DNA of 64,000 bases. It comes from Candidatus Gilichinskyi gelida. GTDB taxonomy: Bacteria; Acidobacteriota; Thermoanaerobaculia; Gp7-AA8. Of this stretch, positions 17,188 to 62,634 are shown piece by piece. The translations under genes were made by a program, and so were the position numbers. The notes under the pieces are model-generated. The model made no database searches. It had not been told where the DNA came from and worked only from the letters and a program-made list of their open reading frames with translations. Within the stretch, counting starts at the first letter, position 1; the number at the start of each line of letters is the position of its first letter. The DNA lies in assembly GCA_038040385.1 (NCBI GenBank), contig JBBPII010000008.1:109091-173090 (forward strand), read 5' to 3'.

Positions 17188-19170
17188 ATGCCGAGAAAGC
17201 GCCGCGTCGTCGGCACCGCCGGCCACATCGACCACGGCAAGACCGCGCTGGTGAAGGCGCTCACCGGCGTGGACACCGACCGCCTCCCCGAGGAGAAGCG
17301 GCGCGGCATCACCATCGACCTGGGGTTCGCGAGCTGGTTCACCGACGACTACCAGATCGGCTTCATCGACGTCCCCGGCCACGAGCGCTTCGTCAAGAAC
17401 ATGCTCGCGGGGGTGGGGGGGATCGACAGCGCGCTGTTGGTCGTCGCCGCCGACGAGTCGATCAAGCCGCAGACGCGCGAACACTTCGACATCTGCAAGC
17501 TCCTCGGCATCCGCACCGGTGTCGTGGCCATCACCAAGAGCGATCTGGTCGACCCCGACATCATCGACCTGGTGCGCCTCGAGATCGACGAGCTCGTGGC
17601 CGGCAGTTTCCTGGCCGGAAAGCCGATCGTGCCGGTATCGAGCGTGACCGGCGCGGGCCTCGACGTCCTGCGCGCGGCGATCGTGAAGTCGGTGTCCGAG
17701 GTCGACGATCGCGACGGCACCACGCGCGTGTTCCGCCTGCCGATCGATCGCGTCTTCACCATGAAGGGCTTCGGCTCGGTGATCACCGGGACGACCTTCG
17801 CCGGGCGGCTGAATGTCGAGAGCGACGTGGAAACGCTGCCCGGCGGCGACCGCAGCCGTGCGCGCAACATTCAGGTGCACGGTGAAGCGCGCGAGCTCGC
17901 GTCGGCCGGCGAGCGGACGTCGGTCAATCTGCCGGACATCCCGCTCGAGCGACTGCACCGCGGGCAGCAGCTCGTCGCGCCGAACACGCTGCGTACGTCG
18001 CAGGTCATCACCGTGAAACTCGATCTCTTGAAGACGGCGAAGCCGCTGAAGGAACAGACGCGCATCCGCTTTCATCACCTCGCCGCGGAATTGCTCGGAA
18101 GCGTGCGCTTCGTCGACCAGACGGTGGAGCTGAAGCCGGGGGGGAGCGCATTCGCCCAGGTGCGGCTCGAGTCGCCGGTGGTCGCCGCCGCGGGCGACCG
18201 ATTCGTCGTCCGCCGCTACTCGCCGGCCATCACCGTCGGCGGCGGCGTGATCCTCGACGCGCACCTGCCGAAGCTGAGCCGCGCCACGCGGCCGGAGCTG
18301 CTCGACGTCCTCGCCGGCGGCACGCTGCCGCAGCGCGTCGAGCTGATGGCGAAACTGGAGGGGCTGCGCGGGCTCACCGTTCACGAGGTTCAGGCGCGGA
18401 CGGGAATCCGCGTCGAGACGCTGACGAAGGAGCTCAAGCCCTCACCCCGCGCTTCGCGCCACCCTCTCCCGCAAGCGGGAGAGGGGGAAAACCAGCGCCC
18501 CTCTCCCGCCGCAGCGGGAGAGGGTCCGCGAAGCGGGGGTGAGGGTCTCGTCGACACCGGCAACCTCCGGTGGATCCACGTTGACGTCCTCGCCGACTTC
18601 CGGCGCCGCGCCATGGAGTTCCTGCAGGCGTACTTCCGCGACAACCGCATGGCGATGAACGTCCCGAAGGGGGAGTTCGTGCAGAAGCTCCTGCCGCACG
18701 GCGCGGACGGGCAGCTCGTGAACTTCCTCCTGCAGGACCTGGCGCGCGAGAAGATCGTGGTCATGGAGGGCGACGCGCTCGACGTCCCCGGCCGCTCAAA
18801 GAAGCTGGGCGGCGCGGAGGGGGAGCTGGCGCGCTCGATCGAGCAGCGCTTCGCCGAGGCCGGCCTGCAGCCGCCGCCGGTCTCCGAACTGATCAACGAG
18901 CGGACGCAGAAAGCGAAGATCATCGAGGGCGTGGTCGGCTTCCTGGTGAAGCAAGGGACGCTGGTTCGCCTCGCCGAGGGGCTTTACGTGCACCGCGACG
19001 CGCTGGCGGGCGCGCGCGAGCGGATGACGTCGCGCAAGGGCGAGACGATCGACGTCGGCCAGTTCAAGGAGTTCTTCGGCCTGTCGCGGAAGGTGGCCAT
19101 CCCGCTGCTGGAGTGGTTCGATCGAGAGGGGGTCACGAAGCGGGTCGGGGACGCGCGGCGGGTTCTTTGA
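17188..19170 (+). CDS. selB: Selenocysteine-specific translation elongation factor SelB carrying an in-frame ~36-aa insertion
   Basis: G-domain motifs (GHIDHGKTAL, DVPGHERF, TKSD) plus an extended C-terminal winged-helix region. 660 aa against the usual ~615–640. Confidence 0.88.
   Translation: MPRKRRVVGTAGHIDHGKTALVKALTGVDTDRLPEEKRRGITIDLGFASWFTDDYQIGFIDVPGHERFVKNMLAGVGGIDSALLVVAADESIKPQTREHFDICKLLGIRTGVVAITKSDLVDPDIIDLVRLEIDELVAGSFLAGKPIVPVSSVTGAGLDVLRAAIVKSVSEVDDRDGTTRVFRLPIDRVFTMKGFGSVITGTTFAGRLNVESDVETLPGGDRSRARNIQVHGEARELASAGERTSVNLPDIPLERLHRGQQLVAPNTLRTSQVITVKLDLLKTAKPLKEQTRIRFHHLAAELLGSVRFVDQTVELKPGGSAFAQVRLESPVVAAAGDRFVVRRYSPAITVGGGVILDAHLPKLSRATRPELLDVLAGGTLPQRVELMAKLEGLRGLTVHEVQARTGIRVETLTKELKPSPRASRHPLPQAGEGENQRPSPAAAGEGPRSGGEGLVDTGNLRWIHVDVLADFRRRAMEFLQAYFRDNRMAMNVPKGEFVQKLLPHGADGQLVNFLLQDLAREKIVVMEGDALDVPGRSKKLGGAEGELARSIEQRFAEAGLQPPPVSELINERTQKAKIIEGVVGFLVKQGTLVRLAEGLYVHRDALAGARERMTSRKGETIDVGQFKEFFGLSRKVAIPLLEWFDREGVTKRVGDARRVL
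18439..18545. repeat. Nested palindromic element (outer inverted repeat enclosing two tandem CCCTCTCCCGC/GCGGGAGAGGG hairpins) inside the selB CDS
   Basis: Outer arms are CCCTCACCCCGCGCTTCGCG and CGCGAAGCGGGGGTGAGGG. Inner hairpins lie at 18462-18485 and 18499-18524. The total length is a multiple of 3 and encodes PSPRASRHPLPQAGEGENQRPSPAAAGEGPRSGGEG. Confidence 0.8.
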
Positions 19171-26522: not shown

Positions 26523-27241
26523 ACATCCGCTCCATCACCGCGCCGAATCCCGGACCGTTCACGCTCGACGGCACCCGCACCTACCTCATCGACGACACGG
26601 CGGTGCTCGATCCGGGGCCGGCGATCGGCGCGCACATCGACGCCATCGCCGCGGCGATGCCCAACCTGCGCACCATCTTCATCACCCACCGCCACGGCGA
26701 CCACGCCCCGGCCGCCGTCCCGCTGAAGCAGCGGACCGGCGCGCGAATCGTCGCCCCGCGCGGCGTGCTCGATGAGACCGACCGAGTCGTCGAAGACGGC
26801 GAGGTCGTCGACGGGCTGGAAGTGATCGCCACGCCCGGCCACACCAACGAGCACGTCTGCTACCTCACCGCGGACGGCGATCTCTTCACCGGCGACACCA
26901 TCCTCGGCAGCGGCACGACCACCATCTTCCCGCCCGACGGCCACATGGGCGATTACATCCGCTCGCTGCGGCGCCTGCACGAACGCCGGCCGCGCCGCAT
27001 CTATCCCGCGCACGGCCCCACGCGCGACGACGCCGTGGCGCTGATCGACGAGTACATCGCCCACCGCCTTCAGCGCGAGCAGCAGGTCCTCGACGCCATC
27101 GCCGCCGGCGCGCGCAGCGTCGAAGAGATGCGCCGCCGCATCTATCCCGATCTCGACCCGCGCCTGCACGGCGCGGCGGAGATCCAGATACGCGCGCACC
27201 TCATCAAATTGGAAGAGGAGGGCCGGCTCCCGTCATCCTGA
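26519..27241 (+). CDS. MBL-fold metallo-hydrolase
   Basis: HxHxDH motif (THRHGDHAP), then TPGHTNEHV and the GDTILG Asp. The GTG start overlaps the NUDIX stop. The last codons plus stop (..PSS*) are supplied by REP copy A. Confidence 0.8.
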   Translation: MNIRSITAPNPGPFTLDGTRTYLIDDTAVLDPGPAIGAHIDAIAAAMPNLRTIFITHRHGDHAPAAVPLKQRTGARIVAPRGVLDETDRVVEDGEVVDGLEVIATPGHTNEHVCYLTADGDLFTGDTILGSGTTTIFPPDGHMGDYIRSLRRLHERRPRRIYPAHGPTRDDAVALIDEYIAHRLQREQQVLDAIAAGARSVEEMRRRIYPDLDPRLHGAAEIQIRAHLIKLEEEGRLPSS

Positions 27242-27307
27242 GCCGCGCAGACGGCGAAGGATCTCAAGATGCGGCATCCGGAGATCCTTCGCTACGCTCA
27301 GGATGAC
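27232..27307. repeat. REP/MITE-like palindromic element, copy A
   Basis: Left arm GTCATCCTGAGCCGCGCAGACGGCGAAGGATCTC, loop, right arm GAGATCCTTCGCTACGCTCAGGATGAC. The same left arm recurs at 38504, 44875 and 57293. Confidence 0.85.
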
Positions 27308-27312
27308 GGAAG

Positions 27313-32633: not shown

Positions 32634-32735
32634 GGAGCGCCGGCGTCCTCGCCGGCTGGCCCGCAGGCGTCCCGCCTGCAGATATCGGGCGGCGGGACGC
32701 CGCCCGGCCAGCCGCCGGGACGGCGGCGTTCCGCG

Positions 32736-37623: not shown

Positions 37624-37684
37624 CCGGTCTTTACGGCTCCATTTCGGAAAGGTTTTCCGCCGCGCGGATGATACCTTTGCCGGT

Positions 37685-37784
37685 GTCATCCCGAGCCGCG
37701 AAGACGGCGAGGGATCCCCCGCCTACGGAGCGATCCGTTTCACACTGCGGGGGATCCCTCGCGCTCTTCGGCGCTCGGGATGAC
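37685..37784. repeat. REP/MITE-like palindromic element, divergent copy E
   Basis: GTCATCCCGAGCCGCGAAGACGGCGAGGGATCCCCC, a 28-nt loop, then GGGGGATCCCTCGCGCTCTTCGGCGCTCGGGATGAC. Sits between the divergent sigma and ABC genes. Confidence 0.75.
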
Positions 37785-37796
37785 ACGGCCACGCTC

Positions 37797-38513
37797 ATGA
37801 TCGAAGTCCGAAATCTCACAAAGAAATACGGGGAGTTCACGGCGGTCGACGAGGTCTCGCTGGAGGTCCGCCGCGGCGAGATTTTCGGCTTCCTCGGCCC
37901 CAACGGCGCGGGCAAGACCACCACCATCCGCATTCTCGCCGGGCTCTCGCTGCCGACCTCGGGCGAGGTGCGCATCGACGGCCTCGACGTGGTCAAGGAG
38001 GGCCTCCGGATCAAGGCCATGACCGGCTACGTCCCCGACCGCCCCTTCCTCTACGAGAAGCTGACCGGCCGCGAGCTGCTGCAGTTCGTGGCCAATCTCT
38101 ACCGCCGGGAGTGGCCGGACTGCGAAGCGCGGGCGATGGAGTTGCTGCGCTATTTCGACATCGAGCAGTGGGCCGACGCGCGGATCGAGAACCTCTCGCA
38201 CGGAATGAAGCAGAAGCTCGTGCTCGTCTCCGCTTTGGTGCACGACCCCGCGCTGCTGATCATCGACGAGCCGATGGTCGGCCTCGACGCGCTGGCGCAG
38301 AAGCAGGTGAAGCTGCTCATGCGCCGCCTGGCCGAGGAGAAGAAGACGGTGTTCCTGACCACGCACACGCTCTCGGTGGCCGAGGCGGTCTGCGACCGGA
38401 TCGCCATCATCAACCACGGACGGATCGTCGCCAGCGGCACGACCGCGGAGTTGAAGAGCGATCGGGCGCTGGAAGAGGTGTTCCTGGAGCTGACGTACCC
38501 AACGTCATCCTGA
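37797..38513 (+). CDS. ABC transporter ATP-binding protein with no adjacent permease
   Basis: Walker A GPNGAGKTT, signature LSHGMKQKL, Walker B LLIIDEP. Its last codons plus stop (..YPTSS*) lie inside REP copy B. Confidence 0.85.
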   Translation: MIEVRNLTKKYGEFTAVDEVSLEVRRGEIFGFLGPNGAGKTTTIRILAGLSLPTSGEVRIDGLDVVKEGLRIKAMTGYVPDRPFLYEKLTGRELLQFVANLYRREWPDCEARAMELLRYFDIEQWADARIENLSHGMKQKLVLVSALVHDPALLIIDEPMVGLDALAQKQVKLLMRRLAEEKKTVFLTTHTLSVAEAVCDRIAIINHGRIVASGTTAELKSDRALEEVFLELTYPTSS

Positions 38514-38580
38514 GCCGCGCAGACGGCGAAGGATCTCCGCGGCTGAGATCCTTCGCCGCGCTTCGCCGGCTCAGGATGAC
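38504..38580. repeat. REP/MITE-like palindromic element, copy B
   Basis: Left arm identical to copy A; right arm GAGATCCTTCGCCGCGCTTCGCCGGCTCAGGATGAC. Contains the ABC stop (TGA at 38511-38513) and the prmC ATG (38576-38578). Confidence 0.85.
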
Positions 38581-39379
38581 GCTCGAGACGATCGCTGATT
38601 TGCGCGCGAAGCTACGCGGCCTGATCGACCCTCGCGACGCCGACCTCCTCATCGCCGACGCCGCCGGCCGCACCCGCGCCTGGGTGCTCGCGCACGGCGA
38701 CGAGTTGATCGACGCCGCGCCCATCGAGGCGCTCGCCGCGCGGCGCGCCGCGGGCGAGCCGCTGCAGTACATCCGCGGGCGCTGCGACTTTTTCGGCCGC
38801 GAGTTCCTGGTCGACGACCGGGTGCTGATTCCGCGGCCGGAGACGGAACTGCTGGTGGAGACGGCGATCATGCGCGCGCCGCGCGGGGCGCGGGTGGTGG
38901 ACGTCGGCGCCGGCAGCGGCTGCGTGGCCATCTCGCTGGAGCGGGCGCGGACGGACTTGAAGGTCGTCGCCGTGGATGTCTCCATCGGCGCGCTGGCGGT
39001 GGCGGCGCGCAACGCCCGCGCGCACAAGTCGCGCGCGCGCTTCGCCGCGTCCGACCTCCTCGGCTCGCTTCGCGGCGCGTTCGACGTCATCGTCTCCAAC
39101 CCCCCCTACATCGCCGGCAGCGACGTCGCCGGCCTGCAGGTGGAGGTCCGCGATCACGAGCCGCGCGCCGCCCTCACGCCCGGCCCGCGCGGAACGGAGA
39201 TCATCGAGCGCATCTACGACGCCGCGGGAGCGGCTATGGTCATCCTGGAGATCGGTTTCGGGCAGGAGCGGGCCGTGCGCGAGGCCGCGGCGGCGCGCGG
39301 ATTCACGGTCGAGGAGGTGCGCAACGACCTCGCCGGCATTCCGCGCGTCGTCGTATCATCGCCCCATGGTCGGCAATGA
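38576..39379 (+). CDS. prmC: Release-factor glutamine methyltransferase (HemK)
   Basis: NPPY motif (VSNPPYIAG), a SAM-binding VVDVGAGSGCVAIS motif, and N-terminal similarity to PrmC. 267 aa. Confidence 0.85.
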   Translation: MTLETIADLRAKLRGLIDPRDADLLIADAAGRTRAWVLAHGDELIDAAPIEALAARRAAGEPLQYIRGRCDFFGREFLVDDRVLIPRPETELLVETAIMRAPRGARVVDVGAGSGCVAISLERARTDLKVVAVDVSIGALAVAARNARAHKSRARFAASDLLGSLRGAFDVIVSNPPYIAGSDVAGLQVEVRDHEPRAALTPGPRGTEIIERIYDAAGAAMVILEIGFGQERAVREAAAARGFTVEEVRNDLAGIPRVVVSSPHGRQ

Positions 39380-39719
39380 AAAATGCCTCTTCTGCCGCAT
39401 CGCGAACGGCGAGATCACGGCGCGCAAGGTCTACGAGGACGACGACGTCGTCGCCTTCCACGACATCAACCCGCAGGCGCCCACACACGTGCTGGTCATC
39501 CCGCGCAAGCACATCCCCACGCTCGACGATCTGACCGAAGCCGACGCCGCGACCGTCGGCACCGCGCTGGTTCGCACGGCGCGCATCGCCCACGAGCTGC
39601 ACTTGAGCTCCGACGGCTATCGCGTGGTCGCCAACAACGGCGAGGCGGCCGGGCAGACGGTGTTTCACATCCACTTCCATCTGCTGGGGGGGAGAAATTT
39701 CGGGTGGCCGCCCGGGTAG
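39366..39719 (+). CDS. HIT-family (histidine triad) nucleotide hydrolase
   Basis: HIHFHLLGG triad motif plus PQAPTHVLVIPRKHI. 117 aa, overlapping the prmC 3' end. Confidence 0.85.
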   Translation: MVGNEKCLFCRIANGEITARKVYEDDDVVAFHDINPQAPTHVLVIPRKHIPTLDDLTEADAATVGTALVRTARIAHELHLSSDGYRVVANNGEAAGQTVFHIHFHLLGGRNFGWPPG

Positions 39720-39720
39720 G

Positions 39721-39785
39721 TTCGCTGTTGACCGTTGGCCGTTGGCCGAAACCCCTCGGTCAACAGTCAACAGTCAACGGCGAAC
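39721..39785. repeat. Tandem-heptamer palindrome, GTTGNC family, copy H1 (terminator-like)
   Basis: TTCGCTGTTGACCGTTGGCCGTTGGCCG, loop AAACCCCTC, then GGTCAACAGTCAACAGTCAACGGCGAA. Located between the convergent HIT and AI-2E genes. Confidence 0.75.
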
Positions 39786-39788
39786 GCG

Positions 39789-44800: not shown

Positions 44801-44884
44801 AACGGCGAGCGGGAGAGGTTCAACGGGCTGTCGACGGACCGCGTCCATCGCATCGTGCAGGGCGGCGGCCGCCCGTCATCCTGA
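41804..44884 (+). CDS. Secreted FG-GAP/VCBS-repeat protein with an ASPIC/UnbV C-terminal domain and an uncharacterised ~430-aa N-terminal domain
   Basis: Signal peptide MSIKRVVLALSLLSSSVFAQQ. Repeated DxDxDGxxD FG-GAP-like motifs (DIDNDGDDD, DFDNDGLED, DFDGDGLLD, DIDGDGRED...). C-terminal NGNHWIKIRLTG...GAKILV UnbV-like region. The final GRPSS* comes from REP copy C. Confidence 0.7.
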   Translation: MSIKRVVLALSLLSSSVFAQQTIIDEIGKLESVRDPKCYATASRLEDFIYGTPLETQARFEKIALQKRLIRALWEKASAAGTAQVTVDALRPAIQQLIPYKQLANGDWDVAGTTITARDKRQYGSVAYALRALLAVQQDLLLDPGARLLPLDTASVELMKEAIDLTTLAALQQADGAARRLNQEKITPELLTRAWTSFVPESVAAPASGADDRRPRAAAATLEKFATIKAVVAEKLEAFSKYNDIAAPVFLRNVQVYFARHLWPTDPAEGKAFKDEFTETMVAWTRDVTLLAEKNAKKNGHPLIRVTDVEPALQAFQPHEMNRYEDIIYFPRLPRAERVTIEAYDIDAFRDPGVHWMYLSEVLNDPMYPGTLEPDPFAAELLTEGAAQEGVLILRLAGRFAEAEDSDRLNRGHLAKSLKNIQTLLDRHASMPAAKKAPETVVSAKPSAVPSTGTYFTDVTGAAGIRFEHRISDWLARFIRGYTVVEGGNVRLAVPPTFGGSGVAAEDIDNDGDDDVLILGGAGNALYLNDGKGNFKDVTESAGLGWRRADGNAGEPRQPIVADFDNDGLEDILITYVDDDHRLYKNLGSARFEDVTAKAGLGGKGSVAGPATTIDFDGDGLLDLYIGYFGDYLHGVLPTLSRYNANALPDKLFRNRGNLQFQDVSAGSGVENTGWAQAVGHADIDGDGREDLICGNDFGVNAYYRNLGNGKFENVAQKLGLDKPSYTMSVGITDLNRDTYPDIYIANIVTMDKDEKYVLPDTKTRMKFNPAKMANMRVVEANDLFTSVAQKAKLQSYEQSNAVGRGYKSTGWSWDADFFDYDNDGDDDLYCVNGMNEYAVYSSVNPYLTDPSGKPSSAILPVAEKEQNVFFVNQRGKLNEESKASGADLLGNSRSVAYFDADADGDLDMIVNAFNGPATLYRNNSQSNGNHWIKIRLTGDPKKGVSRDAIGAKILVDSAHNKGLWREVFSTIGYLSVHPKEQHLGLGSDKTVNVTVVWPNGERERFNGLSTDRVHRIVQGGGRPSS

Positions 44885-44949
44885 GCCGCGCAGACGGCGA
44901 AGGATCTCGAAATGCGCATCCTGAGATTCCTCGCTGCGCTCGGAATGAC
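44875..44949. repeat. REP/MITE-like palindromic element, copy C
   Basis: Left arm identical to copy A; right arm diverged to GAGATTCCTCGCTGCGCTCGGAATGAC. Contains the stop of the upstream gene and the ATG plus first ~13 codons of the downstream gene. Confidence 0.8.
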
Positions 44950-46642
44950 GGCGGCACTCGCCGTTCCCGCGCACGCCAACCGGTTGGCCAAAGCCACCAG
45001 CCCCTACCTCCGCCAACACGCGAACAACCCCGTCGACTGGTACCCGTGGGGCGACGCGGCGCTGGCGAAGGCGAAAAAAGAGAACAAGCCGATCTTCCTC
45101 TCCATCGGCTATTCGAGCTGCCACTGGTGCCACGTGATGGAGGCCGAGTCGTTCTCGCAGCCGGACGTCGCCGCGGTGCTCAATCGCGCGTACGTCTCCA
45201 TCAAGGTCGACCGCGAAGAGCGGCCGGACATCGACGCCGCCTACACCGCCGCGGCGCTGAAGCTGCTCGACGAGGCCGGCTGGCCGCTGAATCTCATGCT
45301 CACGCCGGACGGCAAGCCGTTCTTCGCCGCGACGTACCTCTCGAAGGAGCGGCTGATCGACGTCGCCGGCAAGCTGGCGACGGCGTGGCGCGAGCAGCCG
45401 GACCACGTCGCCGCGTCGGCGCGCATGATCGTCACGCAGCTTCGGCCGGCCGCATCCGAGGACGCCGAGGCGCTCGGGCGGCAGGATTTGGACGCCGCCT
45501 ATCGCGAGCTGGCGGCGGAGTTCGACCCGAAGAACGGCGGCTTCGGCGGCGCGCCGAAGTTTCCGTCGCCGCAGAACCTCTTCTTCCTCCTCCGCTACTG
45601 GAAGCGCACCGGCGAACCGCGGGCGCTGGCGATGGTGGAGGCCACGCTACACGCCATGCGCAACAGCGCGCTGTTCGACGCCAAGGCGTTCGGCTTCCAC
45701 CGCTACGCCACCGACGCCGCGTGGCAGAAGCCGCATTTCGAGAAGATGCTGTACGACCAGGCGCTGCTCGCGCTGGCGTACGCCGAGGCGTACCAGGCGA
45801 CGCGGAAGGAGGAGTACGCGGACACCGCGCGCAAGGTGTTCGAGTACGTGCTGCGCGACCTCCGCGCGCCGAACGGCGCGTTCTGGTCGGCAAAGGACGC
45901 CGACAGCGCGAATCGCGACGACAAGATCCTCACTGACTGGAACGGCCTGATGATCGCCGCGCTGGCCGCGGGGGCGACGGCGCTCGACGAGCCGGCGTAC
46001 GCCGCGGCGGCAGCGCGCGCGGCGAAGGCGATCTCGAGCGTCCGCCCCTACCTCGATGACTACGCGTTCTTTATCTGGGGCCTTCTCAACCTGTACGAGG
46101 CGTCGGCCGAGGCGCGGTGGCTGGAGCAGGCCATCCGCCTGCAGGACGAATCGCTCAAGTCGTTCGCCGGCGGCTACATGACGGCATCGGACGATCTCTT
46201 CGTCCGCCTGCGCATCGTCCGCGACTCGGCGACGCCCGCCGGCAACGCCGTGCAGCTCGCGAACCTCCTCCGCCTCTCCCGCATGACCGCCCGCGACAAC
46301 TACGCCGCCGCCGCGAAATCGCTCATGCGCTCCGCCGCCGCCGAGGTGCGCGCCATCCCCTCCGCCGCGCCGCATTTTCTGAGCGCCGTCGACTTCGCCG
46401 TCGGCCCGTCGTTCGAGATCGTGCTCGCGGGGAAGGACGTCGCGCCGCTCAAGCGCGCGGTGTTCAGCTCTTTCGTCCCGAACAAGGTGGTGCTCTACCG
46501 TTCGGACCAAATAGTACGAATCGCACCATTCACCAAAATGCAGACCGCCCGCGGTGGGAAGGCGACGGCGTACGTCTGCCGCGATTACGTGTGCAATCTG
46601 CCGACGGGGGATGCGGGGGTGGTTGCCGAGCTGCTGAAGTAG
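44912..46642 (+). CDS. Secreted thioredoxin-domain protein of the YyaL/DUF255 family
   Basis: [13 protein letters not shown]...[16 protein letters not shown] thioredoxin-like N-terminal domain, then an (alpha/alpha)6-like domain. The N-terminal [22 protein letters not shown] signal peptide is encoded within REP copy C. Confidence 0.8.
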
Positions 46643-51970: not shown

Positions 51971-52059
51971 TCCTGACCCTGAGCGAAGCGAAGGGGAAGG
52001 ATCTGGCGCCCATGTGCGCTGCGCAAGTGGGCGCCAGATCCCTCGCTGCGCTCGGGATA
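51971..52059. repeat. REP/MITE-like palindromic element, divergent copy F
   Basis: CCTGACCCTGAGCGAAGCGAAGGGGAAGGATCTGGCGCCCA...TGGGCGCCAGATCCCTCGCTGCGCTCGGGATAA. The right arm matches the family's GAGATCCTTCGCTGCGCTCGGAATGAC. Confidence 0.7.
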
Positions 52060-55313: not shown

Positions 55314-57292
<1,979 letters not shown>

Positions 57293-57302
<10 letters not shown>

Positions 57303-57378
57303 GCCGCGCAGACGGCGAAGGATCTCGTCCGCGCTACTTGAGATCCTTCCGCTTCGCTTCGCTCAGCGTCAGGATGAC
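57293..57378. repeat. REP/MITE-like palindromic element, copy D
   Basis: Left arm identical to copy A; right arm GAGATCCTTCCGCTTCGCTTCGCTCAGCGTCAGGATGAC. Holds the stop of the plus-strand YyaL gene, and (reverse strand) the last 14 codons plus stop of the minus-strand GT39 gene. Confidence 0.85.
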
Positions 57379-59601
57379 GAGGCGGCGGAACTCGTCCGAC
57401 TTGATCATCCGCCCCGGCACGCGCGCGCGCGGCAGTTTCGCCAGCTCGCGCTCCTCGGCCGGCTCCGGCAGGCGCTGCAGCAGGACGGCGTACGCGCGGC
57501 GCAGGAACGCGCGGTCGTCCTCGCAGTCGCTGCCGTAGGCGATCGTCTCCACGACGTCGTCGAGGTGGAGCTCGCCGCGCGCCAGGCGGGGCCAGACTTC
57601 GAGCGGATCGAATCCGAGGCGGCCGATGAGCGCTTCGACCGGCTCGCGGCAGAGGGTGGCGGGCGGGAAGCGGGTGCGCGTGTTGCGCCATGCGGTTTTC
57701 TCGTCGATGAAGGGGCCGCTCGCCAAGCGAACGGAATACAAGCTTCCAGGCGCGGCAGCTAGTGGATCCTCGACGGCGATCCAGGCGAAGGCGACGGCGA
57801 GCTCGCGACGATCGGTCGCTTTCGGATCGAGGTCGGCCGGCGCCGCCGCCCGCCCGAAGTCGAAGGCCAGCGTGTTCAACCCGTCGCGCCACACCGCGGC
57901 CGGCGCGGCGATCGACCGCTCCGTCCACCCGGGAGCCAGCGTCAGCTCGCCGAGGGGCCGCCCGTTGAGCGAGGCGCGGAGCGTCTGCGCCGGCAGCGCG
58001 CCGTGGTGGAACGGCAGCACGCGCATGCGGATGGTGCGATCGCGCCGGCCCCAGCGCGGAAAGGTCACCGACGCCCGCGTGCCCATCGCCCAGCGGAAGC
58101 CTTCCGGATCCGCCCAGCCGGCGTCGAGATAGCGATTCTCCGCGGCGGCGAGATCGATCAGCAGGCGCGGTCCGATCGCCGCGGACGCCGCCCGCCACTC
58201 CGCGGGGCCGGCCCGCTCCCGAAGAAAATCTCCGGTGTAGTGCAGCCGGAATCGCTCCAAGGGACTGCCCAGAACCATCGGATAGCGGCACATCCAGGCG
58301 CGGACCTCATTGTCGCTGCCGGCGGTGACGAGCCACGCCGCGGGGTGCGCGCCGATCACCAGTTGCGCCACCGAAACGTACGGGACGCCTTCGAGCGTGG
58401 CGCCCTTCGGCAGCCGGCGGAGGTAGTAGCGCAGCGAGACCTCCGTCCAAGGCTGGTCGGCGATGACGACGTCGTCGGGGCGCGCGTACCGTTCGATCTT
58501 CGCCGCGATCGCGCGCCAGTCGAGCTTCCGGAAGGCTTCGGTGCGCGCCGCGCGCCACTCCTGCGACGCCAGCGCAGCGACGATGGCCAACGCCAGCACC
58601 AGCGGCGCGCGTTGGAGCACGAGCCGCGCGACGCTCGCGATGCCGATGCCAGCCAGCAGAACGTAACCGACCAACGCCGGCGTGACGTAGCGCGCCGCGT
58701 AGAAATGGTCCAGGTGCTTCAACGCGCCGAGCGCGATGGCCAGCGGCAGCAGCGCCATTCCTCCGATGACGACGCCCTCGACGCGGTCGCGCCGCATCGC
58801 GGCGACGACGCCGATCAGCGCGAGAGCCAGCATCGCCACCGCCGCCCGCCCGCCGGCGTGCGTGCCCAGCGCCGAAACGGAGAAGGTCCGCAGCAGCGTG
58901 GCGAAGAACGCGTAATCGAGCGGCGGAAACGCCGGCCAGCTCTCGTTGGCCATCGGTTTCGCGGCGTAGACGACGGGGAAAAGCGCCAGCGCGCCGGCAG
59001 CGATGGCGGCGACGATCCAATACCAACGCTTGCCCATGAGCAGCGCTGCCGCGACGGCGACGATCAGCGCCGCGGCGACGACCGGCGCCGCCGTCGCCGA
59101 CGAATAGAGCAGCGCAACGATCAAGGCGGCCGCCGCGGCGATCGAGCGCGCGCGGAGCAGGACGACGATGAGCGCCGCGGTGAGGAACATCATCAGCGCG
59201 TACGGGCGCGCTTCGCGGCTGTAGTAAACGTGCAGCGGCGACACCGCCAGCAGGATCGCAGCGGCTGCCGCCGCCACCGCGTCACGCTGTTTCGCCGCCA
59301 GCCAGACCAGGGCGATGGCCGCCAATCCAAGCAGCGCGGCCGGCAGGCGGCCCGCGGCTTCCGACGAGCCGAACGCGCGCGCCGCCAGTTGCGTCGCGTA
59401 GTAGAGCGGGCCGTGCTCCTCGGCGAAACCGGCCAGCCAGCGCCACCACGGCCCCGAAGCCGCCGCCGTCGTGAGGCGCTGGCCCAGGATCTCGTCGAGC
59501 CAGTAGCTGGGCGTGCCGAGGCCGTCGAAGCGGAGGAAGGCGCCGGCGGCGATGGCCAGAAGCGCTACGGCGTCTTTGGAATGACGACCCAGCCGCTCCA
59601 C
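57334..59601 (-). CDS. GT-C-fold glycosyltransferase (family 39 / ArnT-PMT-like) membrane protein with a large C-terminal soluble domain
   Basis: An N-terminal ~330 aa with ~11 TM helices and ArnT/PMT-like loop motifs, then a ~400-aa soluble region. The start is uncertain because it overlaps the upstream FN3 gene by 37 nt. Confidence 0.6.
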   Translation of the reverse strand: MERLGRHSKDAVALLAIAAGAFLRFDGLGTPSYWLDEILGQRLTTAAASGPWWRWLAGFAEEHGPLYYATQLAARAFGSSEAAGRLPAALLGLAAIALVWLAAKQRDAVAAAAAAILLAVSPLHVYYSREARPYALMMFLTAALIVVLLRARSIAAAAALIVALLYSSATAAPVVAAALIVAVAAALLMGKRWYWIVAAIAAGALALFPVVYAAKPMANESWPAFPPLDYAFFATLLRTFSVSALGTHAGGRAAVAMLALALIGVVAAMRRDRVEGVVIGGMALLPLAIALGALKHLDHFYAARYVTPALVGYVLLAGIGIASVARLVLQRAPLVLALAIVAALASQEWRAARTEAFRKLDWRAIAAKIERYARPDDVVIADQPWTEVSLRYYLRRLPKGATLEGVPYVSVAQLVIGAHPAAWLVTAGSDNEVRAWMCRYPMVLGSPLERFRLHYTGDFLRERAGPAEWRAASAAIGPRLLIDLAAAENRYLDAGWADPEGFRWAMGTRASVTFPRWGRRDRTIRMRVLPFHHGALPAQTLRASLNGRPLGELTLAPGWTERSIAAPAAVWRDGLNTLAFDFGRAAAPADLDPKATDRRELAVAFAWIAVEDPLAAAPGSLYSVRLASGPFIDEKTAWRNTRTRFPPATLCREPVEALIGRLGFDPLEVWPRLARGELHLDDVVETIAYGSDCEDDRAFLRRAYAVLLQRLPEPAEERELAKLPRARVPGRMIKSDEFRRLVILTLSEAKRKDLK

Positions 59602-62575: not shown

Positions 62576-62626
62576 AGTTGTCAGTTGTCGGTTGTCAGTT
62601 GTCGACAACCGATAACCGACAACTGA
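62576..62626. repeat. Tandem-heptamer palindrome, GTTGNC family, copy H3 (terminator-like, after glmS)
   Basis: AGTTGTCAGTTGTCGGTTGTCAGTTGTCG / CGACAACCGATAACCGACAACTGA, 6 nt after the glmS stop. Confidence 0.8.
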
Positions 62627-62634
62627 GAACCTTC

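Follow-up and report, generated by a model that had tools for sequence, protein, structure and literature searches.

GTAG REPs and BIMEs of the E. coli type are extragenic palindromes found just downstream of genes, whose termini can supply a stop codon; the REPs are linked to RAYT transposases, and to our knowledge neither they nor BIMEs provide the next gene with its start codon. Where a REP lies no more than 15 nt from a stop codon, it influences how the gene ahead of it is translated. A second superfamily, the CGTC-tagged REPs, was described by Di Nocera, De Gregorio and Rocco in 2013 (PMC3733652) and includes dRS3 of Neisseria and RPE-4 and RPE-6 of Rickettsia. Its units have an unpaired tag (CGTC, with TGTC or CCTC also accepted), a stem of 8-9 bp that starts with A-T/T-A pairs, a loop of 4-5 nt, and a 3-nt tail with the consensus CCA; they occur in many interspersed copies near the 3' ends of genes, with some inside coding regions and no dedicated transposase beside them, and most are paired with their tags on the outside, as what that paper terms head-to-head dimers. 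CGTC repeats were reported there from five phyla, Acidobacteriota not among them, and the supply of a stop codon was reported for GTAG REPs (as TAG), with neither a TGA in the stem nor a start codon contributed by the partner unit.

Three further kinds of system come close in other respects. Mycobacterial interspersed repetitive units (MIRUs; PMC12548453) are mobile repeats situated at the cistron junctions of operons, where the flanking genes stay translationally linked; they contain an internal short ORF that overlaps codons of both neighbours (-4 spacing) and are direct or tandem repeats. In structure-dependent translational coupling, as seen for rpmI-rplT (spacing of +52 nt), genes VII/IX of phage f1 (+62 nt, with a hairpin partly within the upstream ORF; both in PMC12548453) and the coat and lysis genes of MS2, the downstream start codon is sequestered by pairing with RNA at or near the 3' end of the upstream ORF and is opened by the translating ribosome, the structures being gene-specific rather than copies of a mobile repeat. 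Finally, the Correia repeat-enclosed elements of Neisseria and the palindromic elements of Rickettsia are co-transcribed palindromic mobile repeats which alter the expression of neighbouring genes (via RNase III or promoters) or insert in frame into genes. Both are unrelated in sequence to the element described below: Correia elements differ also in having TA target duplications and IHF sites, and Rickettsia RPE-1 in being inserted inside proteins, not at stop/start junctions.

In the window, i.e. the whole stretch of 64,000 nucleotides analysed here, a nested palindromic repeat copy of 79 bases lies exactly between an ABC-ATPase gene and prmC, which encodes the release-factor glutamine methyltransferase (Table 1). 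Its outer arms, CGTCATCCTGAGC (38503-38515) and GCTCAGGATGACG (38569-38581), are perfect reverse complements over 13 nt, and further inside there is another perfect 13-bp stem (GGCGAAGGATCTC / GAGATCCTTCGCC) with a 7-nt loop; when internal mismatches are allowed the inverted repeats extend to about 35 nt, so that the terminal inverted repeats characteristic of MITEs are present as well. The structure is far beyond chance: the RNA of 38490-38600 folds at -64.1 kcal/mol (z = -7.1, with none of 200 shuffles as good), and the DNA of the element has a z of about -8.3 on either strand. A first-pass annotation of this DNA had already proposed that a structured palindrome joins the two genes, and the fold bears this out, although the extent given there, 38504-38580, falls short of the true one by one base on each side. 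After the stem comes CTCGAGACGATCGC, rather than the T run that would follow the GC-rich stem of a Rho-independent terminator, and a scan of the junction revealed neither a terminator-like nor a promoter-like site.

Table 1. Positions of the junction element, of the genes around it and of its sister copies in the window.
Feature	Position	Strand	Remarks
ABC-transporter ATPase gene	37797..38513	+	238 aa; ABC_tran Pfam match; ORF 37668..38513, likely start ATG 37797
TGA stop of ABC-ATPase gene	38511..38513	+	inside left arm, 8 nt into the long near-perfect stem
REP element made of two CGTC-tagged REP units placed head to head	38503..38581	+	one long hairpin in the ABC-prmC mRNA
Left REP unit	38503..38537	+	CGTC tag, stem ATCCT/AGGAT, 2x2 G.A internal loop, inner stem GCCG/CGGC, tail CTC
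Dimer spacer CGCGGCT	38538..38544	+	apical loop of the long hairpin
Right REP unit, inverted	38545..38581	+	its end ..GGATGACG holds the prmC start
ATG start of prmC	38576..38578	+	inside right arm
prmC, release-factor glutamine methyltransferase	38576..39379	+	267 aa; Pfam PrmC_N and MTS
HIT-family gene	39366..39719	+	14-nt overlap with the end of prmC
Sister copy between convergent genes	27231..27308		left-arm TGA ends a metallo-beta-lactamase-fold gene (..LPSS-stop)
Diverged sister copy with TGTC tags	37684..37785		between divergent sigma-factor and ABC genes
Sister copy bridging FG-GAP/UnbV and DUF255/YyaL genes	44874..44950	+	left-arm TGA is the FG-GAP/UnbV stop (..RPSS-stop)
Sister copy between convergent genes	57292..57379		left-arm TGA ends a DUF255 gene (..NTSS-stop)

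Each half of the palindrome also folds on its own, into a unit in which the tag, CGTC or TGTC, stays unpaired, with a stem starting with A-T/T-A (ATCCT/AGGAT), a 2x2 G.A block, a short GC stem-loop and an unpaired 3-nt tail at the untagged end. The first two stem positions are complementary A/T, as the definition of CGTC REPs requires, and all five copies of the element in the window are dimers with the tags outside (CGTC on eight of the ten arms, TGTC on two), with conserved arms, variable centres and gene ends lying 0-30 nt from the arms. The arm motif matches the window 13 times at up to two mismatches, against 3.1 matches expected, a count that none of 100 shuffles reached. In its tag, the first pairs of its stem, its dimer layout and the nearness of its copies to gene ends the element resembles the CGTC-tagged REPs; it differs in the G.A block within the stem, in the loop, and in the tail, which reads CTC. 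The unit found in the window has 5 bp, the 2x2 block, 4 bp and a 6-nt loop, whereas the common variant has 5 bp, the block, 2 bp and a 3-nt loop, and both fall outside the published sizes. Since neither the lengths of stem and loop nor the bases of the tail agree with the ranges in PMC3733652, we class the element as a relative of the CGTC-tagged superfamily, outside the four published families, rather than as a member of one of them. The supplements of that paper contain no consensus matching the element, and a search of papers for its literal sequence matched only unrelated primer sequences. Rfam gave no match at gathering score over the whole window, and at E-values up to 10 the element itself met only sub-threshold miRNA-like hairpin look-alikes.

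A scan with the unit motif, using one genome per GTDB species, returned at least 118 loci. Among the matches listed these fall in Acidobacteriota, Chloroflexota, Gemmatimonadota, Bacteroidota, Bacillota, Patescibacteria, Omnitrophota, Planctomycetota, Verrucomicrobiota, Pseudomonadota, Cyanobacteria, Nitrospirota and Fibrobacterota, and the GC content of the loci ranges from 35 to 70%. Across 154 units among the matches listed, stem position 5 (Y/R) covaries with the base opposite it in 151 (T-A in 125, C-G in 26, three exceptions), which supports the hairpin at the level of the single unit. The element is a REP of the CGTC type in a phylum, Acidobacteriota, from which no CGTC repeats had previously been reported, and the range of such units grows from the five phyla of 2013 to more than 12 among the matches listed, which sharpens the question of how they are mobilised and maintained. 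That the family has been mobile can be seen in a close relative, L201 (PrmC 90% identical), where the orthologous spacer between the sigma-factor and ABC genes lacks the 102-bp copy 37684-37785 and the left flank is identical; this absence indicates an insertion polymorphism. Comparison of the filled site with the empty one allows at most a 3-nt duplication (CGG), the flanks having diverged and MAFFT having misaligned L201 past the insertion point. The left arm of the same copy contains an ATG in frame with the sigma-factor ORF, but relatives start that gene 22 codons downstream.

The central claim of the first-pass annotation was that one repeat copy supplies both the stop codon of the ABC gene and the start codon of prmC, and this is what we observe. 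The TGA in the left arm closes the ORF of an ABC_tran protein, and the ATG in the right arm opens a frame that continues through the PrmC_N and MTS domains; counted from this ATG, residue 17 of PrmC falls on position 17 of the PrmC_N profile. The C-terminus of the ABC protein consists of a conserved ..FLELTY followed by a tail that varies from 2 to 12 residues across relatives, the tail in the window being PTSS. The left unit codes the final codons (..T S S stop), so that SS and the stop come from the REP, and the variability of the tail explains how a REP-encoded end of this kind is tolerated.

For the start codon one may consider a different explanation, namely that PrmC initiates at the in-frame TTG 38600 just beyond the repeat and that the ATG in the arm is coincidental. 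Removing 38503-38581 on paper leaves a TGA (38596-98) one base ahead of this TTG, and a few PrmC homologues (P0029, P0042) are annotated with shorter N-termini. However, codons 4-9 of prmC (E, T, I, .., L) keep their residues in relatives through synonymous changes (GAG/GAA, ACG/ACC, ATC/ATT, TTG/CTC/CTA/CTT), which argues that they are translated, and the N-terminus MTxETIA is conserved. The TTG itself is the codon of L9, which is CTC, CTA, CTT or TTA in L003, L199, L200, L002 and L005, and none of L003, L199, L200 and L002 has a start codon at this position; the possibility of a downstream start outside the repeat, on which the first-pass reading would have foundered, thus finds no conservation behind it. 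In the window the prmC frame has no ATG, GTG or TTG between 38168 and ATG 38576. L199 and L200 have a stop in the same frame 69-105 nt ahead of the arm ATG, with no start codon between the two, which makes the arm ATG the sole canonical start (ATG, GTG or TTG) there. We therefore regard initiation at TTG 38600 as very improbable, and ATG 38576 is, as far as sequence can show, the genuine start of prmC.

The order of genes around the junction, sigma factor (minus strand), ABC ATPase, prmC, HIT and AI-2E transporter (minus strand), is kept in relatives down to 65% PrmC identity, and wherever a PrmC homologue has a named source, the label reads Thermoanaerobaculia or Acidobacteriota. The overlap of prmC with the HIT gene is 14 nt in L199 and L200 as in the window, so the operon is tightly packed elsewhere. 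Where the ABC-prmC junction has no REP, the two genes overlap: in L001 (PrmC 90% identical) the ABC gene ends ..ELTYPLSSP-stop and shares an ATGA with prmC, in L002 (82%) it ends ..LTYGTD-stop with a 14-nt overlap with the prmC start, and in L006 and L007 (58% and 64%) ABC and prmC overlap as well. CGTC-type REPs occupy the junction in the window and, counting one decayed copy, in four relatives. In the window the stop after PTSS and the start of MTLETIA, in the left and right arm respectively, are spaced by +62 nt. In L199 (67%) a version of roughly 190 nt likewise provides the stop (EMSS-stop) from its left arm and the start (MTAETIA) from its right, and in L003 (80%) the stop (PLSS-stop) lies in an extra solo left arm and the start (MTRETID) in the right arm. 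L003 and L199 thus show, at the orthologous junction, the arrangement noted in the first pass, while in L200 (65%) the start (MTGETIA) is supplied by the right arm and the ABC gene has its own stop before the element. L004 (75%) has a decayed copy that retains the right arm, and L005 (67%) and L201 have other, unrelated palindromes in the gap. The stop-and-start arrangement at this junction is real and old. L001 was considered as a clean empty site and set aside, since it keeps GTCATC..ATGACG and is without two codons (x-E) that relatives with a REP have; its sequence suggests a deletion derivative, though no single deletion accounts for it. Among relatives the arms at the junction are invariant and the interiors cannot be aligned, so covariation cannot reveal selection on the pairing of stop and start, and the conservation of the arms could be due to coding constraint or to copy-to-copy homogenisation.

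Set against the systems described above, overlap of REP termini with stop codons is already known, and so are repeats that preserve coupling at cistron junctions (MIRUs). What is new is that the partner units of one dimer give a stop and a start that are base-paired together, and that this arrangement is retained across about 35% protein divergence. The link at the junction is a hairpin that pairs stop with start, unlike that of MIRUs: in the prmC frame, the one open across the element, there is no internal short ORF of the MIRU type, as this frame lacks an upstream start codon over the interval given above, and the TGA overlaps only a CTG codon. The arrangement is a variation within known repeat biology, not a new type of system.

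Supply of the stop codon is the rule for copies in the window. In each of the four canonical copies the arm TGA is the stop of a Pfam-supported gene (the tails are in Table 1 and, for the junction, PTSS), which would have a probability of about 0.012 if frames were random. Arm-TGA stops were also found in L003, L090 and L199, with a borderline score in L136. We scored stops with a codon model trained on the window and applied to loci with GC of at least 0.60, a model that is weak for distant genomes and left most arms unclear; it gave five clear arm-TGA stops, two borderline ones (27232 and L136) and 11 genes ending 15-30 nt before the arm. Among the clearly scored genes, none continued across an arm in a different frame. 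Copy 57292 has a degenerate right arm, not matched in the scan, and here a PMT_2 gene on the minus strand does read through in another frame; this gene ends at TAG 57336-57334, and its C-terminal VILTLSEAKRKDLK is REP-encoded. A crude open-frame test over all phyla, which the codon model superseded, showed a mild excess of the TGA frame among the matches listed (25 vs 11 and 17). For starts there is no bias of the arm ATG toward the frames of departing genes (seven in frame vs seven out, with four of the seven at the ABC-prmC junction), and one independent case is rlmN in L113, whose N-terminus MTK/TNLYDL enters the RlmN_N profile from residue 4. These observations fit a history in which copies insert close to the ends of genes and are then filtered by selection, rather than a dedicated design. 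Given membership of an ordinary large REP family and the supply of stops by four of four copies, tolerated selfish insertion seems at least as important as regulation.

How, then, is prmC translated? In folds of the free RNA the AUG at 38576 has a probability of being unpaired of only 0.002-0.016, i.e. it is more than 98% paired in silico. Its partner is the CAU at 38506-08, 3 nt upstream of the ABC stop, so the start is predicted to be sequestered by the 3' end of the upstream ORF, as in the known cases of coupling through RNA unfolding. A Shine-Dalgarno-like sequence is lacking at any spacing that could be used; an AGGA abuts the AUG directly. When 38496-38520/26 are masked, as they would be by a ribosome with the TGA in its A site, the probability of an unpaired AUG rises to 0.15-0.8 and the inner hairpin stays intact, with the freed right arm re-pairing in part with other sequence. 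We propose that the dimer inserted into an ABC/prmC overlap junction of the kind seen in REP-free relatives, and that the insertion survived because its arms replaced both signals, TCA TCC TGA in the left unit giving Ser-Ser-stop to ABC and ATG ACG in the right unit giving Met-Thr to PrmC. With the arms paired in the mRNA the start would be inaccessible in free RNA; a ribosome finishing ABC would melt the left arm and thereby free the right one. Since the inner hairpin loops out 45 intervening bases, the terminating ribosome would sit beside the AUG, the stop and start being a few nucleotides apart in space as long as that hairpin is folded. Translation of PrmC thus most likely stays coupled to that of ABC, by RNA unfolding, reinitiation or both. 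The ancestral overlap presumably made the two a coupled pair already, and most simply the palindrome would preserve a coupling older than itself, a direction of events that we infer from the comparison of relatives. For this explanation as a whole, a REP dimer in the junction of an ABC-prmC-HIT operon whose arms replace both signals and most likely preserve coupling, we would put the probability at roughly 0.6; the folding results make plausible the suggestion of the first-pass annotation that the hairpin could couple or attenuate prmC expression.

That stop and start sit flush at the base of the hairpin is a trivial outcome of putting any palindrome into an overlap, and one may ask whether the insertion has any regulatory effect at all. 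The arms may simply have happened to restore an in-frame stop and start, after which the helicase activity of ribosomes and breathing of the RNA would keep both genes expressed much as before. A family that was mobile, as the empty site in L201 attests, could well leave tolerated copies of this sort; L005 and L201 have unrelated palindromes between ABC and prmC, as does L203 at the FG-GAP/DUF255 junction, arm ATGs are without overall frame bias, and genes of other genomes mostly stop 15-30 nt before the arm, as described for REPs generally. Yet a start that is more than 98% paired, in a stem of -60 kcal/mol and with no upstream Shine-Dalgarno sequence, would be hard to use unaided, and the arrangement persists where PrmC is only 65-67% identical, so we hold a purely selfish, neutral insertion to be possible but rather unlikely. 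A stem of that strength enclosing the stop could also stall ribosomes instead of coupling the genes, and in one screen cited in PMC12548453, structure just past a stop codon correlated negatively with coupling. The hairpin might accordingly serve mainly to lower or uncouple expression, setting prmC at a different, lower level through stalling just before the ABC stop, protection of the 3' end of the ABC mRNA or cutting by RNase III. The ABC stop does lie 8 nt inside a long near-perfect stem; in E. coli, according to Liang, Rudd and Deutscher (2015, as summarised in PMC12306157), a REP closer than 16 nt to a stop codon lowers translation, and according to PMC2649163 Correia elements bind RNase III and are cut by it. 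Nevertheless, prmC has neither an alternative start nor a promoter-like site, cleavage of the stem would strip away the context of its start, and the ancestral overlap within the operon argues for matched rather than divergent expression, which leaves a mainly lowering or uncoupling role doubtful. Should PrmC indeed need a ribosome that finishes ABC and melts the repeat, then a selfish palindrome can sit in a coupled overlap without breaking the coupling, and the junction would offer a compact natural test case of RNA unfolding against reinitiation, with stop and start 62 nt apart in sequence and side by side in space. Annotators could then take REP arms as marks of true gene ends (..SS-stop) and true starts (MT..) in these high-GC genomes.

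The copy between the FG-GAP/UnbV and DUF255/YyaL genes goes further into coding sequence. The DUF255/YyaL gene starts at ATG 44912, in the apical loop (spacer) of the copy, residues 2-13 come from its right unit, and the 13 element-encoded residues are followed by AALAVPAHA/NRL. Orthologues have a signal-peptide-like segment at the matching position, and the copy thus appears to encode the N-terminal part of a putative signal peptide; if so, repeat-derived DNA can turn into coding sequence, including an apparent signal peptide. The arm ATG at 44945 was also considered as the start and was dropped in favour of 44912, the orthologues having signal-peptide-like N-termini. Across lineages this junction has a REP-derived version in L202, in common with the window, a different AT-rich palindrome that supplies the start in L203, and in L204 no element and a GTGA overlap. 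Hence two independent overlap junctions, ABC/prmC (ATGA in L001) and FG-GAP/DUF255 (GTGA in L204), have been colonised repeatedly by palindromic repeats, different repeats in different lineages donating stops, starts and the N-terminal part of a probable signal peptide. This raises the speculative idea, to which we give little credence at present, that such repeats are adapted to, or strongly filtered for, NTGA overlap junctions of coupled genes: a paired arm stop (..TCC TGA) and start (ATG ACG) would let a copy enter an overlap and rebuild both signals, and by looping itself out of the path of the ribosome the copy would act as a portable coupling-preserving intercistronic cassette. At the convergent pair around copy 27231..27308, the minus-strand gene, which encodes a DUF6812 protein, has its stop 5 nt beyond the right arm. 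Further palindrome families also occur in the window.

The REP unit GTCATCCYGAGC-N(0-14)-GCGARGGATC occurs in near-identical form in more than a dozen bacterial phyla among the matches listed from a contig scan (L081-L198), in genomes whose GC content ranges from 35 to 70%, and in these same matches its usual form is a head-to-head dimer with a variable centre. Sister variants of the unit carry compensatory changes in the stem (ATTCT/AGAAT, ATCCC/GGGAT and ATGCT/AGCAT). For CGTC REPs, a survey published in 2013 named five phyla only (Di Nocera, De Gregorio and Rocco 2013, PMC3733652).

A second copy in the window that bridges two genes lies between an FG-GAP/UnbV gene and a DUF255/YyaL gene: a TGA in its arm is the stop of the former, while ATG 44912, in the apical loop of the hairpin, is the start of the latter. 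Its right REP unit codes for 12 residues of the DUF255/YyaL protein; judged from their sequence, they resemble the n- and h-regions of a putative signal peptide. Of the related FG-GAP|DUF255 loci, L202 carries the REP-derived version as well, L204 has no element at the junction, where stop and start overlap as GTGA, and in L203 the DUF255 start comes from a different, AT-rich palindrome.

Coordinates of the repeats, palindromes and gene junctions discussed here
Feature	Sequence	Position	Context
Bridging REP copy	window	44874-44950	FG-GAP/UnbV to DUF255/YyaL
Diverged REP copy, 102 bp	window	37684-37785	between sigma-factor and ABC genes
PMT_2 glycosyltransferase-like gene crossing degenerate right arm of copy 57292	window	57334-57379, minus strand	non-TGA frame
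prmC/HIT overlap, 14 nt	window	39366-39379	prmC stop, HIT-family gene start
GTTGTCA/GTTGACC palindrome	window	39722-39786	between convergent HIT and AI-2E genes
GTTGTCA/GTTGACC palindrome	window	62577-62630	
Further palindromes (three)	window	18461-18525, 32650-32717, 51996-52044	one CCCTCTCCCGC...GCGGGAGAGGG, two GC-rich inverted repeats
Heterodimer REP, GTCATGCTGAGC.. / ..GCTCAGGATGAC	L113	2510-2590	rlmN-like gene
Palindromic repeat, CACCACAGAGACACAGAG...CTCTGTGTCTCTGTGGTG	L005	~2515-2589	ABC-prmC gap

The PMT_2 gene has its stop, a TAG, in the spacer of copy 57292, and the repeat therefore encodes the final 14 residues of the protein (VILTLSEAKRKDLK). In L113, from another Thermoanaerobaculia MAG, an rlmN-like gene takes its ATG from a heterodimer REP. 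Its product begins MTKTNLYDL, with the match to the RlmN_N profile setting in at residue 4.

The diverged copy is absent from the orthologous spacer of the relative L201 (~700-723), where the left flank is identical; on this sequence comparison, the copy is an insertion polymorphism. Its left-arm ATG (37689, minus strand) lies in the reading frame of the sigma-factor ORF; initiation there would lengthen the gene by 22 codons, but the protein starts with MAEREQ in relatives.

At the ABC-prmC junction, the relative L005 holds a different palindrome, in whose predicted fold the prmC AUG is again paired with the ABC stop region. Sequence related to this palindrome was found in L188 in REP dimer centres, within the loops of several copies. 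The overlap between prmC and the HIT-family gene is likewise 14 nt in two relatives (L199 and L200), which points to an operon that is tightly packed and probably coupled.

The window contains further palindromes of other types, two of them formed by heptad-like repeats, and several REP-like families seem to be abundant in the genome of Candidatus Gilichinskyi gelida.
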